49,270 nucleotides of DNA from contig JAFGCN010000017.1 of assembly GCA_016932615.1 (NCBI GenBank), positions 1 through 49,270 of the forward strand, read 5' to 3'. A program made the translations under genes and the position numbers. Shown piece after piece: positions 39,383-43,492 of this stretch (positions are counted from its first letter, which is position 1; every line of letters starts with the position of its first letter). The stretch is from Candidatus Aenigmatarchaeota archaeon. Its GTDB lineage: Archaea > Aenigmatarchaeota > Aenigmatarchaeia > QMZS01. The notes beneath the pieces were generated by a model. The model did not search any database. It was given only the letters and a program-made list of their open reading frames with translations, and had not been told where the DNA came from.

Positions 39383-39572
39383 TGCCTCTGCGGGGAATTT
39401 CGCTTCAACCCCCTGCCTTAGGGTTATTTGAGGGCTGTTTTTTCGAACCCCGGATCACCTCCTAGCTGCCATTTGATTCCAAGAAATTTTTTCTTGGGGT
39501 TGTCAGACCTTTAGCCAATTAAGCTGAAGGGATGACCGCAGGGAAGCATGTTATCCACTACACTACAGAGGC
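39383..39572 (-). tRNA. tRNA-Arg(GCG) with two introns (anticodon loop 37/38, and T-loop)
   Basis: Minus strand: acceptor GCCUCUG/CAGAGGC (7 perfect bp), U8 A9, D-arm GUGU-AGUGGAUA-ACAU, anticodon stem CUUCC / GGAGG with loop CUGCGG interrupted after G37 by about 70 nt. T-stem CGGGG, then UUCGAAA, then about 45 nt inserted before CCCCG. Discriminator A. Total 190 nt for an ~76-nt mature tRNA. Confidence 0.55.
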
Positions 39573-39610: not shown

Positions 39611-40339
39611 TCAGCTCGCTTGACTGTTTGCAAGGCCCGCAAGAGGGTCAGTAGGGGTGTTTTCGCTTTCAGACCTCTCGATTTCCTTTTTTATTTCCTC
39701 CATTTCCCTGACATCTATATCGATGTCTTCGAATATAATTTCCTGGTGGACAGAAACCTTCTGCTGGTTTGCCAGGTGAAGCATGGCGACAAAATACTTT
39801 GCAGACTCCAGCTGCTCTTTTCCTTTTGTGATGGTGTAGTAGGTAGTTTTCCTTATTTTTCTTAGCTCCCTGTAGACCCTGTCGACATAGTTGTCTATGT
39901 CAAGCTCCAGGAGCTTTTTTATGTTCTCGATTTTGTGCTCCTTGTTTATGCGTATTTCTTCTTTTACCTGCGTGTCCTTTACAATCTTTCCAAGGGCGTA
40001 AGTAAGCTCTTCGAAGGTGATGTTTCGCACAGGTATTCTCTTGATAGGCATTTCAAGCAGGTTGATGCCGTTTATGTCAAGAACTTCCGGGATTCTTTCC
40101 TGGACCGGCTTTTCCATAAGCGTTTCTGACTTCATCCTGAGAAGGACTGCTGAGATGAGTATAAACCTTGCCGGAATCCTGAAGTTTATGGTCTCAAGCT
40201 TTGAAAGGTGCTCTACAAGGGCTTCGGAAAGCACCACAATGTTTATGTTCCAGAGGTCCATGCCTTTTTCGAGCACTATTTCTTTCAGGGCGGACTCCCA
40301 GTCGGAACCATTGACTATCAAATCCAGAACTTTGTCCAT
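39611..40339 (-). CDS. scpA: Segregation and condensation protein A (ScpA, kleisin). Start at the internal MDKVLDL; the track ORF extends to 40630.
   Basis: MDKVLDLIVNGSDWESALKEIVLEKGMDLWNINIVVLSEALVEHL...ILISAVLLRMKSETL matches the ScpA N-terminal signature (LDL...G.DW......DPW.IDI..L...Y). C-terminal winged-helix region. The 40339-40630 extension overlaps the promoter region of the divergent gene. Confidence 0.65.
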   Translation of the reverse strand: MDKVLDLIVNGSDWESALKEIVLEKGMDLWNINIVVLSEALVEHLSKLETINFRIPARFILISAVLLRMKSETLMEKPVQERIPEVLDINGINLLEMPIKRIPVRNITFEELTYALGKIVKDTQVKEEIRINKEHKIENIKKLLELDIDNYVDRVYRELRKIRKTTYYTITKGKEQLESAKYFVAMLHLANQQKVSVHQEIIFEDIDIDVREMEEIKKEIERSESENTPTDPLAGLANSQAS

Positions 40340-40421
40340 AATCAAACATATTTGTATTTTTATGCCATGCTTCTGCGCCGTCTGAGCATTTTTGAATATT
40401 CCTAATATATAATATACCTTT

Positions 40422-40988
40422 ATGGACCTCCTCGAATGCCTTAACTTTCTGAAGGATAACGGAATCAGCATAGCGAGCACTAAGCATGTGCGGGGCATGC
40501 CTGAGGAGTTTCCTGTAGTGCTCAAGGCAAATGTTTTGGAGCACAAGTCTGAACAGAACCTGGTGCGGATTATACACTGCCCTGGGGAGTTTGGCGAGGC
40601 GTGGCACAAGATGGGAAAAACCCAGGACATACTGGTTCAGGAGAGGGTTTCCGGCATAGAGCTGATACTTGGAATACATACGGATGAGACCTTTGGCAAG
40701 GTGATAATGGCTGGGGCAGGAGGCATATTTACCCAGGTCATGATGGACGTTTCCTTCCGTGCAGTCCCGCTAACAAGGCAGGATGCCTCAGAGATGATAA
40801 AAGAGCTTAGGATTTACGAGGTCCTGAAGGGCTTTCGGGGCAAAAGCTATGACTTGTCCCTCGTGGAGGACGCGATACTGAAGCTTTCAGAAATCGCAGA
40901 AAACCACCCTGAGATTAGCAGCCTGGACATTAACCCCTTCATAATCAATGACCGACGGGGCGTGGCAGTTGACTGCAGGATATTTTGA
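40422..40988 (+). CDS. ATP-grasp domain protein related to ADP-forming acetyl-CoA synthetase beta subunit
   Basis: GISIASTKHV...FPVVLKANVLEHKSEQNLVRI and ELILGIHTDETFGKVIMAGAGGIFTQVMMDVSFRAVPLT...LDINPFII match the ACD beta / ATP-grasp_5 pattern. 188 aa. Confidence 0.6.
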   Translation: MDLLECLNFLKDNGISIASTKHVRGMPEEFPVVLKANVLEHKSEQNLVRIIHCPGEFGEAWHKMGKTQDILVQERVSGIELILGIHTDETFGKVIMAGAGGIFTQVMMDVSFRAVPLTRQDASEMIKELRIYEVLKGFRGKSYDLSLVEDAILKLSEIAENHPEISSLDINPFIINDRRGVAVDCRIF

Positions 40989-41058: not shown

Positions 41059-41655
41059 ATGGCAAAGGCGGTAACTCGGGAAGATGTACTGGATAGGGTA
41101 GCCCTTTTTGGCTTTCCTAGGGTTTCTGGTTTCAGGGAGCCGTTTCCTGTAAGAGAGGGGCTTGGTTTTGTTTTACCCCGGTATGTGGAATATGCTCCCA
41201 GGTATGTGGCAGCGGGAGACGACGTGCTTCAGACGCCAGGTTGCGCCTTGGAGCTTTATCCTGACCTGTCGGGTACCAGGCCTGAATGGTACCCTTATGG
41301 ATTTGACTTTGCCGGTTTGAAGGAGGACAAGTTTCCAAAGGGAAGCGATTTTGATTATGATGTTATTGGTGTGGGAGTAATTGGAGGTTTAATAGGTCCC
41401 GCAAGGACTGCATTTAAGTTTCCTGGAGAAGTCGTAAGAGGGGTAGCACAACTTGAGGGTTTGGATTCAAGCGGCACAACCCTCTACAAAGTGCTTAATT
41501 TTGGCAAAGGAAAAACGCTAGGGGATATACTGCCTACCGTAGAAAAGGTATTGGGGGCTGGAGAGGAACTTGAGAGGATAGCTAAAAGAAGGATTGATGA
41601 ACAGATGCGTGCAGAGGTCAGGTCTGTGGTGGAGGAATTTCAGGACCTTAAGTAG
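41059..41655 (+). CDS. Hypothetical protein; no recognisable motif; visibly higher GC than neighbours
   Basis: 198-aa ORF with coding-like composition. Sits immediately upstream of the tRNA cluster. Confidence 0.4.
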   Translation: MAKAVTREDVLDRVALFGFPRVSGFREPFPVREGLGFVLPRYVEYAPRYVAAGDDVLQTPGCALELYPDLSGTRPEWYPYGFDFAGLKEDKFPKGSDFDYDVIGVGVIGGLIGPARTAFKFPGEVVRGVAQLEGLDSSGTTLYKVLNFGKGKTLGDILPTVEKVLGAGEELERIAKRRIDEQMRAEVRSVVEEFQDLK

Positions 41656-41674: not shown

Positions 41675-41765
41675 AAATATAGCCCCGCACGGTCAGTCCT
41701 TCTTTCTTAAAAAGAAAGAAGGTCCGACACCACCAAGAAAGAACTGCCCTCTTTGGCTAAATTGT
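41675..41765 (-). pseudogene. Degenerate partial copy of the adjacent intron-containing tRNA (tRNA fragment / pseudo-tRNA)
   Basis: Minus strand ...GGTGGTGTCGGACC-[CCTTCTTTCTT/AAGAAAGAAGG hairpin]-ACTGACCGTGCGGGGC-TATA parallels the neighbouring tRNA's GTGGTGTAGCGGCC, its CCTTTTCTT/AAGAAAAGG hairpin, ...GCGCGGGGC-TATA. It lacks a T-arm and the 5' acceptor strand. Confidence 0.35.
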
Positions 41766-41773
41766 TAATTTAT

Positions 41774-41952
41774 AGCCCCGCGCGGATTCGAATTCCGCGA
41801 AAAGTTTTCTTTTGGGGGTTGTAAGACCTTTTCTTATCAAGAAAAGGGATTTCCGCGGTCACAGGCTAGCTTCAATCATTGGCTAAGGATTTCTCCCGCC
41901 TCAAACCTTTGATTTCCAAAGGCCTGTATGCTTGGCCGCTACACCACGGGGC
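41774..41952 (-). tRNA. tRNA gene with about 100 nt of intervening sequence (intron or introns); anticodon not confidently assigned
   Basis: Minus strand: 5' GCCCCGU pairs with 3' GCGGGGC (7 bp). D-arm UGUA-GCGGCCAAGCA-UACA. Perfect T-arm GCGGA-AUUCGAA-UCCGC immediately before the 3' acceptor strand. Discriminator U. 179 nt in total. The internal hairpin CCUUUUCUU-GAU-AAGAAAAGG looks like an intron element. Confidence 0.45.
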
Positions 41953-42149
41953 TATAAAATAAAATACCTTCAAAATTATGAATATGTGGCAAAAACTCAA
42001 GGAAATCCGGAAAACCTCCAAATTCCTGAAGGTTACCCCCGAGCAGGCACCTAGTACCTTAAGAAGGTTCAAGAAAGAGATTGAAGAGAAGAAATAATGC
42101 TTGAATAGTTATATTTAGATTATTGATTATTATAGTCATTGTTTTTGAC

Positions 42150-42227
42150 AGGATACGGTAAGTGGTCAAACCCTCCAGTTTGTCGAACTGGCGCCTAAGT
42201 GACTTCGTGGGTTCGAATCCCACTCCT
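42150..42227 (+). tRNA. tRNA-Asp(GUC)-like gene with a recognisable anticodon arm, T-arm and 3' acceptor strand but no canonical 5' acceptor strand
   Basis: Anticodon stem CCAGU/ACUGG with loop UUGUCGA (U33, GUC). T-arm GUGGG-UUCGAAU-CCCAC. 3' strand UCCUUAU + U. The upstream sequence GGATACGGTAAGTGGTCAAACCC has a D-loop-like GUGG, but the 5' strand complementary to UCCUUAU is absent. The variable region is 15 nt, too long for tRNA-Asp. This suggests non-canonical introns or a split/permuted gene. Confidence 0.4.
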
Positions 42228-42252
42228 TATTCGATTGCCTAAAGGCTCTTAG

Positions 42253-43265: not shown

Positions 43266-43389
43266 CTTACTTTATGGGGCGGTAGCTCAGCTTGGGAGAG
43301 CGCACGGCTGAAGCATCCCTGAAAGGGCCAATAGGGTCATTTTGGGACTTAGTTACCGTGATGTCGTGGGTTCAAACCCCACCCGCCCC
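43266..43389 (+). tRNA. tRNA-Phe(GAA) with a 41-nt intron at the canonical 37/38 position
   Basis: GGGGCGG-UA-GCUC-AGCUUGGGA-GAGC-G-CACGG-CUGAAG[41-nt intron]A-CCGUG-AUGUC-GUGGG-UUCAAAC-CCCAC-CCGCCCC-A. All stems are perfect Watson-Crick. CCA is not encoded. Confidence 0.85.
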
Positions 43390-43492
43390 ATCCTCAAGAC
43401 ACTCGGATAATCGCTAGAGGAAGCAATTCAATTATAATGCAACGTTGTGGGATGCACCGTATTATCCAGTATGCCCTATTTAGTAATATGCT

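Follow-up and report, generated by a model that had tools for sequence, protein, structure and literature searches.

A two-intron tRNA-Gln(UUG) gene in an Aenigmarchaeota genome and an inverted tRNA-intron copy between repeats of its 3' end

The DNA analysed here ('the window') is a 49,270-nt stretch (contig JAFGCN010000017.1) of a metagenome-assembled genome of Candidatus Aenigmarchaeota (DPANN), a host of mesophilic type. It contains a minus-strand tRNA-Gln(UUG) gene with two introns, followed downstream by a short composite element in which a 78-nt segment is enclosed by two copies of the tRNA 3' end. An earlier reading of these letters alone (the sequence-only reading) had described the pair as an intron-rich tRNA gene and a shortened, diverged copy of it. 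Our analysis indicates that the middle of the supposed copy is instead an inverted member of a family of tRNA introns, and we consider below how it could have come to lie there.

The tRNA-Gln(UUG) gene and its introns

The gene is made up as follows, the introns being described by their bulge-helix-bulge (BHB) splicing motifs.

41773 to 41953, minus strand: tRNA-Gln(UUG) gene with two introns, 181 nt unspliced and 73 nt spliced
41916 to 41953, minus strand: exon 1, tRNA positions 1-37, AGCCCCGUGGUGUAGCGGCCAAGCAUACAGGCCUUUGG
41868 to 41915, minus strand: intron 1, 48 nt, at the canonical site 37/38, with a strict hBHBh' motif
41853 to 41867, minus strand: exon 2, tRNA positions 38-53, AGCCUGUGACCGCGG
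41793 to 41852, minus strand: intron 2, 60 nt, at the non-canonical site 53/54, a member of the intron family treated below
41773 to 41792, minus strand: exon 3, tRNA positions 54-73, UUCGAAUCCGCGCGGGGCUA

Positions 41953 to 41773 constitute a complete two-intron tRNA-Gln(UUG) gene. It begins AGCCCCGUGGUGUAGCGGCC and ends with exon 3, with A1 (41953) paired to U72 and A73 (41773) as discriminator; the sequence-only reading was right to see a real tRNA here and placed its ends one base short on each side. Cutting out 41915-41868 (48 nt) and 41852-41793 (60 nt) in silico leaves a 73-nt canonical cloverleaf, which ARAGORN calls as tRNA-Gln(ttg) with the T-loop UUCGAAU. The anticodon, at first not unambiguously assigned by eye, is UUG once both introns are removed. 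The roughly 100 nt of extra internal sequence reported earlier amount to 108 nt, and the 9-bp hairpin noted with them (41827-41835/41839-41847) sits within intron 2. In the spliced product the anticodon arm reads CAGGC-CUUUGGA-GCCUG, with the break after G37, and the T-arm reads CGCGG-UUCGAAU-CCGCG, with the break after G53. The universal G53-C61 pair and the 7-nt T-loop are obtained only by excision at 53/54, and the T-arm GCGGA-AUUCGAA-UCCGC of the first reading is an artefact of unspliced sequence. A permuted gene is ruled out by the collinear order of the parts and by the mature ends at 41953 and 41773. We infer that the transcript would be processed by the archaeal splicing endonuclease and a ligase.

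Modelling of the BHB motifs gave a strict structure for intron 1 and a relaxed one for intron 2. In intron 1 the anticodon stem serves as the outer helix (7 bp in the scan); it is followed by a central helix, CUUU/GAAG, with GG^A and CU^A as bulges, and by an inner helix of 5 bp, AAUCA/UGAUU. Intron 2 was not picked up by the strict scan; its central helix is CCGC/GCGG and its bulges are GG^A and AA^U, with no inner helix, so that its predicted cleavage depends on an endonuclease of broad specificity. Both 53/54 and 59/60 are among the documented non-canonical intron sites of archaeal tRNAs (PMC4090602), and DPANN endonucleases of the L3-loop type have been associated with disrupted tRNA genes (PMC5829648).

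Relatives of the locus, given here by L numbers, were found by a FEN1 protein scan (L002, 67% identity), by a metagenome scan with the intron 1 pattern (six contigs) and through orthologues of the adjacent ATP-grasp gene. The order kleisin, ATP-grasp, tRNA-Gln, FEN1 is conserved, and L062, L064, L066, L071 and L073 have two-intron tRNA-Gln orthologues of the same exon-intron layout. Across six lineages the 5' and 3' parts of intron 1 are conserved around a variable middle hairpin. Intron 2 is laid out as AAAUCCC, a pyrimidine/purine hairpin, the motif GGUCUUACAACCCCCAAAAGAAAA and a second small hairpin. Comparison of the window with L062 reveals two compensatory changes of base pairs in the intron 2 hairpin, and longer variants of the intron occur in L066 (152 nt) and L071. 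In L068, L069 and L076 the ATP-grasp gene is followed by a small membrane-protein-like gene in place of tRNA-Gln, so the position of the tRNA is not fixed within the clade.

The tRNA-Gln gene is thus a multi-intron archaeal tRNA, a known kind, here found in Aenigmarchaeota. It resembles the multi-intron tRNAs of Thermoproteales, Nanoarchaeota and ARMAN (Sugahara 2008, as reviewed in PMC4090602) in having two introns, one at 37/38 with a strict hBHBh' motif and one at 53/54 that is relaxed and non-canonical, and in being missed by standard finders. It differs from them in its host, an Aenigmarchaeota lineage of mesophilic type, and in the conserved two-hairpin build and long motif of its introns.

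Several smaller features surround the gene. The leader and trailer are complementary over 16 nt (94%; 41765-41780 with 41947-41962), a pairing that would add about 9 bp to the acceptor stem of the primary transcript. UAUA flanks the gene on both sides in most relatives, and the 17 nt on its 5' side are identical in the window and L073. Assemblies of relatives also tend to break at intron 2 (L061 end, L065 end, L002 3291-3390, L001 end): two contigs stop exactly at its 5' splice site (GACCGCGG), and L002 has a 100-N gap there, all N runs being exactly 100 nt, the standard convention for an assembly gap and no mark of deliberate masking. A Logan contig of the same organism stops within a few bases of the tRNA-Gln 5' end. 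The breaks fit either a repeated intron family or heterogeneity of intron 2 within the population.

The downstream element and a family of tRNA introns

The element and its parts are the following, DR1 and DR2 being the two direct repeats of the tRNA 3' end.

41771 to 41785, minus strand: DR1, CCGCGCGGGGCUAUA, tRNA positions 61-73 plus 2 nt of trailer
41693 to 41770, plus strand: 78-nt, intron-sized copy of the intron family between DR1 and DR2, antisense to tRNA-Gln
41721 to 41743, plus strand: family motif, GGUCCGACACCACCAAGAAAGAA, located by motif searches
41692 to 41728, no strand assigned: long hairpin with 17-nt arms, a 3-nt loop and the core UUCUUUCUU/AAGAAAGAA
41678 to 41692, minus strand: DR2, CCGUGCGGGGCUAUA, matching DR1 at 14 of 15 positions

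DR2 is displaced from DR1 by 93 nt, downstream of the tRNA 3' end, and a similarity of this quality would arise by chance within +/-300 nt with a probability of about 3e-5. The earlier observation that the 3' acceptor strand and its TATA-containing flank recur downstream, and that the T-arm does not, is borne out. Aligning the two supposed copies nevertheless gave a divided answer. On the same strand the local alignment of element and tRNA-Gln gene scores 21, which is not significant, since 62 of the 1834 control windows from the genome do as well, as do 129 of the 2000 shuffled sequences; what can be recovered is the 15-nt direct repeat and, on the opposite strand, a match to tRNA introns. 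The 15-nt 3' end is the sole direct-repeat portion of the element. A duplicated tRNA fragment, as first proposed, holds for the last 13 nt of the tRNA and 2 nt of trailer and fails for the 78 nt between the repeats.

The match to introns was recognised with the help of a second tRNA gene. A search of the window with TTCTTTCTTGGNGNTGTNGGACC, a block of the element conserved with a relative, gave one further match, at 39487-39509 of the opposite strand (0.01 expected), and this match lies inside a tRNA-Arg gene that was found through it:

39383 to 39572, minus strand: tRNA-Arg(GCG), the second two-intron gene, its spliced form called tRNA-Arg(gcg) by ARAGORN
39535 to 39464, minus strand: tRNA-Arg intron 1, 72 nt, at 37/38, a family member with a strict BHB motif (outer helix 7 bp, inner helix 3 bp)
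39441 to 39397, minus strand: tRNA-Arg intron 2, 45 nt, at 59/60

On the raw window this gene, too, is unseen by ARAGORN and Rfam. The unspliced tRNA-Gln is missed by both even at E values of up to 10; the single tRNA called by ARAGORN is a tRNA-Asp at 42147-42232, and the single one reported by Rfam lies at 43276-43390. Since multi-intron tRNAs are known, the tRNA-Gln gene matters mainly for annotation: two of the four tRNA genes of the window are invisible to both programs, and DPANN tRNA sets are known to look incomplete (PMC5829648). The tRNA-Arg gene lies on the strand opposite to that of its orthologues in L073 and L069, and so seems to have been locally inverted in the lineage of the window.

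tRNA-Gln intron 2 and tRNA-Arg intron 1 align with a local score of 40. A profile hidden Markov model (HMM) built from seven bona fide introns, with the downstream element left out, was run over a search space of 679 kb; it matched introns at Gln 53/54, Arg 37/38 and Arg 59/60 across lineages with E values of 1e-10 to 1e-12 (3e-12 for tRNA-Gln intron 2 of the window). The remaining matches are confirmed tRNA introns or spots syntenic with the tRNA-Arg and tRNA-Phe genes of relatives, the latter judged by position only. Family introns are 72-80 nt long and share a two-hairpin architecture and a long conserved motif, beyond what the BHB rule requires. That motif (GGUCUGACAACCCCAAGAAAGAA / GGUCUGACAACCCCAAGAA) occurs three times in the window against 0.65 expected, once in the element and otherwise at 41810-41828 (minus strand) in tRNA-Gln intron 2 and 39491-39509 (minus strand) in tRNA-Arg intron 1. 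The family has members at Gln 53/54, at Arg 37/38 (window and L069) and at Arg 59/60 (L073); similar introns at differing positions and in differing tRNA species mark it, on these alignments, as a family of transposed introns. Rfam has no match in the introns or the element even at E values of up to 10. An intron-encoded box C/D small RNA was rejected, there being no Rfam match and CUGA not being conserved across the family. In addition, tRNA-Phe(GAA) of the window (43275-43393, plus strand) has an intron of about 41-44 nt at 37/38 that begins CAUCCC like those of the family, and the L002 lineage has a family HMM match upstream of FEN1, where the window has tRNA-Phe (position only).

The plus strand of the element aligns with tRNA-Gln intron 2 and with tRNA-Arg intron 1 at a local score of 30 each, above the control maxima of 29 and 26 from 1818 windows. 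The HMM, whose training set held introns and nothing else, matches the element on its plus strand alone (E = 4e-4). Its closest match among the loci of relatives is L073 tRNA-Arg intron 2, at 59/60 (BLAST, 91% over 47 nt, E = 3e-9; 44 of 47 positions, score 72); the similarity begins 1-2 nt from the first base of that intron (GUCA...; GUCAUCCC vs GUCAGUCC) and spans the pyrimidine/purine hairpin, the motif and the second hairpin. Both family hairpins and the motif are found in the element, and its 78-nt insert compares with 72-80 nt for family introns. By these measures of sequence similarity the element is a full-size, inverted member of the tRNA-intron family. The block first taken for D-arm-like is accordingly not derived from a D-arm: it is the reverse complement of the family motif, also present in tRNA-Gln intron 2, and what was read as a shortened tRNA copy with D-arm-like block and hairpin is, in its middle, inverted intron sequence. 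The hairpin at 41692-41728 is the longest and strongest looped inverted repeat in the window, and its core is identical in the L073 element and in L073 tRNA-Arg intron 2.

Other structures were sought in and around the element. No plus-strand tRNA could be constructed around it, and a plus-strand BHB scan of the same region gave weak, noise-level matches only; on the minus strand only a weak symmetric form is possible. A BHB inside the element hairpin (UCGG/CUGA, bulges ACC and CCG) is possible in both carrier lineages and far less stable than the plain 17-bp hairpin. Readings as a C/D box, H/ACA or selenocysteine insertion (SECIS) RNA or a plus-strand tRNA were rejected, the motifs being absent. 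A triple helix or alternative pairing of the three UUCUUUCUU/AAGAAAGAA copies is explained better by a second hairpin of the family type, formed in both lineages by the 5' UUCUUUCUU and a run of purines upstream of it. We infer that the element contributes no part of any tRNA.

The composite element is found in one other lineage only (L063/L073/L074, three samples of identical sequence). It is absent in L062, L066/L002, L071 and L072, and from the 95 nt of L064 contig that lie downstream of the tRNA. The L073 element keeps both repeat copies, including the same C-to-U difference of DR2 from DR1, and matches the window at 21 of 23 positions in the 5' block and 19 of 22 in the 3' block; the hairpin count differs, with three in the L073 lineage and one in the window. 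Both elements share the derived states GGUCC, ACACC and CCGUG, which do not occur in the paralogous introns or the tRNA copy. The blocks and the distal repeat are thus 86-100% identical between lineages whose ATP-grasp proteins are 63% identical and whose ATP-grasp third codon positions agree at 41% (33% at conserved four-fold-type codons), so that neutral sites are saturated; the stretch from the distal repeat to the stop of the neighbouring open reading frame (ORF) does not align at all. A decaying paralogue, the earlier suggestion, fits such conservation poorly. High identity and shared derived states amid saturated sites also make recent gene conversion of the element unlikely and imply some constraint, perhaps one so far unrecognised on tRNA-flanking RNA or DNA. 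As judged from these comparisons, the element is of single origin and conserved.

The element is probably transcribed as a structured 3' trailer of tRNA-Gln. The minus-strand fold has an energy of -31.6 kcal/mol (z -3.07), and the first U5 run past the tRNA falls in its hairpin loop. All three helix transitions between the lineages (in the stem that closes the hairpins, C-G to U.G and A-U to G.U; in the DR1-DR2 pairing, a G.U) retain pairing in the minus-strand RNA only, which hints weakly, with three events, that the tRNA-sense transcript is the relevant one.

Origin of the element

We lean, at somewhat better than even odds, towards the element being the footprint of a DNA-level insertion or recombination of an intron at the tRNA-Gln 3' end, accompanied by duplication of the target. 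The event would date from the common ancestor that the window shares with L063/L073: a family intron whose nearest match is the tRNA-Arg 59/60 intron would have inserted or recombined into the tRNA-Gln 3' end, and the target there would have been duplicated. The proximal repeat would then complete the tRNA-Gln gene, making the event harmless, while the distal repeat would stay joined to the old trailer and the element would persist as a structured 3' trailer. The flanks are consistent with this order: the L073 trailer past the distal repeat (CUAUGAAUUUU) resembles the native trailers of element-less relatives (CUAUGAUUU...), which places the distal copy on the ancestral flank, whereas the L073 trailer right after the tRNA is unlike them. 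A longer original repeat, considered from the similarity of the GAUGAAA flanks, was discarded as too weak.

Closely similar introns at different positions and in different tRNAs of Thermoproteales are described in PMC4090602 and PMC4390854 as intron transposition; according to PMC4090602 its mechanism is not known and probably operates on DNA. The family described here resembles that case (Fujishima et al. 2010, as conveyed by the same two sources) in occupying Gln 53/54 and, by lineage, Arg 37/38 or 59/60, and differs from it in having one member outside the tRNA body, inverted and between 15-nt repeats of a tRNA 3' end. We came across no account of a solo intron copy flanked by repeats in this way in the literature searched, which did not cover Fujishima et al. 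2010 itself. Physical clues to how BHB introns spread are rare, and an inverted intron copy outside a tRNA with its target duplicated would be one. A more specific and rather doubtful form of the idea is that the 93-nt unit (the 78-nt inverted copy plus one 15-nt repeat) is a snapshot of DNA-level intron movement, subsequently kept by selection; it may represent an intron-sized unit with a precise 5' boundary and a 15-bp target duplication at the tRNA 3' end, and may have been retained because it serves as an optional intron of the acceptor stem, with a BHB formed by the palindromic repeat, or because the trailer acts as an antisense RNA towards the intron family.

A number of observations weigh against an insertion footprint. 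We know of no enzyme or mechanism for the insertion of a BHB intron with target duplication. Inspection of the element ends revealed no terminal inverted repeats and there is no recombinase gene between DR1 and DR2; as a miniature inverted-repeat transposable element it would have a repeat like a target-site duplication and none of the terminal inverted repeats, and the other copies seen are all tRNA introns. True family introns are not flanked by repeats of the 15-nt type. A simple insertion leaves unexplained the same-strand similarity of UUAGCCAA(U/A)GA to tRNA-Gln intron 1, and the element has a 12-mer, GAGGGCAGUUCU, in common with intron 1 of L062, again on the same strand; these could indicate a history of duplication plus inversion instead. 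The comparative evidence is thin, with only two carrier lineages, and the conservation argues for a function that an insertion account does not name, as a pure relic should have decayed.

The duplication history just mentioned would comprise a tandem partial duplication of tRNA-Gln (beginning in the 3' part of intron 1 and extending as far as the trailer), an inversion of the interior of intron 2 between palindromic CCGCGG sites and a deletion of the T-arm between CCGCG repeats. All of this would be local rearrangement, and it comes near to the diverged copy of the sequence-only reading. Three collinear same-strand blocks, at spacings of 126, 127 and 93 nt, are as such a duplication predicts, a construct flipped in silico lines up with the element block by block, and CCGCGG and CCGCGCGG palindromes do flank intron 2. 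We nonetheless regard this history as unlikely. No fewer than three events would be required, the L073 tRNA-Arg 59/60 intron matches the element better than the window's own tRNA-Gln intron 2 does, the same-strand alignment taken alone is not significant, and the UUAGCCAA block is only an 8-10-mer, with TTGGCTAA occurring 5 times in the window against 2.5 expected.

It is similarly improbable, in our estimate, that the element is first of all a functional structured RNA from the minus-strand tRNA-Gln trailer, acting as a terminator or processing element or as an antisense RNA to the family introns, whether in the pre-tRNA or excised. Its conservation at saturated neutral distance, its stable minus-strand fold, the strand bias of the helix transitions and the loop position of the U5 run all agree with such a role, and the 5' block can form pairs with the tRNA-Arg intron motif at 20 of its 23 positions. 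The three transitions are weak statistics, however, at roughly p 0.1; the number of hairpins (one against three) differs between the lineages, relatives that have the same convergent arrangement of genes do without the element, and Rfam offers no match.

An optional third intron at 67/68 in the acceptor stem, with 93 nt excised and the distal copy forming the true 3' end of the tRNA, is a good deal less probable still. The palindromic repeats can pair as a weak BHB of symmetric form, with CGCG/CGUG as central helix and a CG^G bulge on either side, in the same geometry in the window and L073, ARAGORN accepts a tRNA carrying the distal 3' end, and the idea would explain why the distal repeat is conserved and why its flank resembles the ancestral trailer. 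Yet this BHB conformer, with an outer helix of 2 bp and an inner one of 1 bp, is much less stable than an unbroken 8-bp helix joining the two repeats. Nothing requires such splicing either, since the tRNA is already complete, and the conservation of the 5' block is left unexplained.

Scarcely better placed, and if anything slightly worse, is the view of the element as an attachment-site (att) remnant of an integrase-type virus or plasmid that integrated into the tRNA-Gln 3' end and was later almost wholly deleted. A repeat of a tRNA 3' end beside an intact gene is the classic footprint of integration (PMC3293823), and a fast-evolving orphan ORF (described below) co-occurs with the element. The likeness to mobile-element tRNA fragments (att sites of the SSV and pNOB8 type; Caldiarchaeum tRNA-Thr, Sugahara 2012, PMC3293823) extends to the intact tRNA with a direct repeat of one end and to the tie of intron gain and fragment formation to DNA recombination. 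Against it, the repeats enclose just 78 nt of intron-like sequence, with neither integrase nor cargo, and are 15 nt long where integration footprints have about 44 nt; the orphan ORF, in which no integrase domain was recognised, is not enclosed by the repeats, and no further copy of the repeat follows on its far side. A scan of a viral contig collection with the 3' block of the element returned a single match, in a GC-rich coding region, which we read as chance.

That the element belongs to a split or permuted tRNA, as the sequence-only reading had also entertained, or is a 3' half whose partner lies elsewhere, is very improbable: such tRNAs exist in DPANN and Crenarchaeota (PMC4090602, PMC5829648), and the element resembles those of Nanoarchaeum, Caldivirga and Thermofilum in placing a 3' acceptor strand with discriminator near intron-like sequence, but it lacks a T-arm, an anticodon arm and a leader complementary to a partner, its middle is antisense intron sequence, and the adjoining tRNA-Gln(UUG) gene is complete after splicing.

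Neighbouring genes

41059 to 41655, plus strand: orphan ORF of 198 aa, its stop codon 22 nt from DR2

This ORF converges on the element and occurs only in the two element-carrying lineages. Its only relative is the syntenic 213-aa ORF of L063/L073 (L073 1605-2246), to which it is 27% identical; two exhaustive protein searches (5.8 billion and 1.84 billion sequences) returned no homologue, there is no Pfam match, and its AlphaFold model, with a predicted local distance difference test (pLDDT) score of 37, is unusable. With neither a Pfam match nor a homologue, and no fold search having been made, the ORF was rejected as a candidate recombinase or integrase.

On the other side of tRNA-Gln, the tRNA-Asp(GUC) called at 42147-42232 (plus strand) is atypical. 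It has a 13-nt insertion in the variable region, its top three acceptor pairs are mismatched or wobble, and its Rfam score of 28.2 falls below the gathering threshold of 29; it may be a pseudogene or bear a further, unrecognised disruption. Between tRNA-Gln and tRNA-Asp lies a conserved 39-aa ORF, MNMWQKLKEIRKTSKFLKVTPEQAPSTLRRFKKEIEEKK (41978-42097, plus strand), which has no Pfam match and has recognisable homologues in L002, L062 and L064. The kleisin-like protein encoded at 39611-40630 (minus strand) gives weak matches to the eukaryote-type CNDH2_C and Rad21_Rec8 domains as well as to ScpA, and its gene adjoins the ATP-grasp gene in all relatives.

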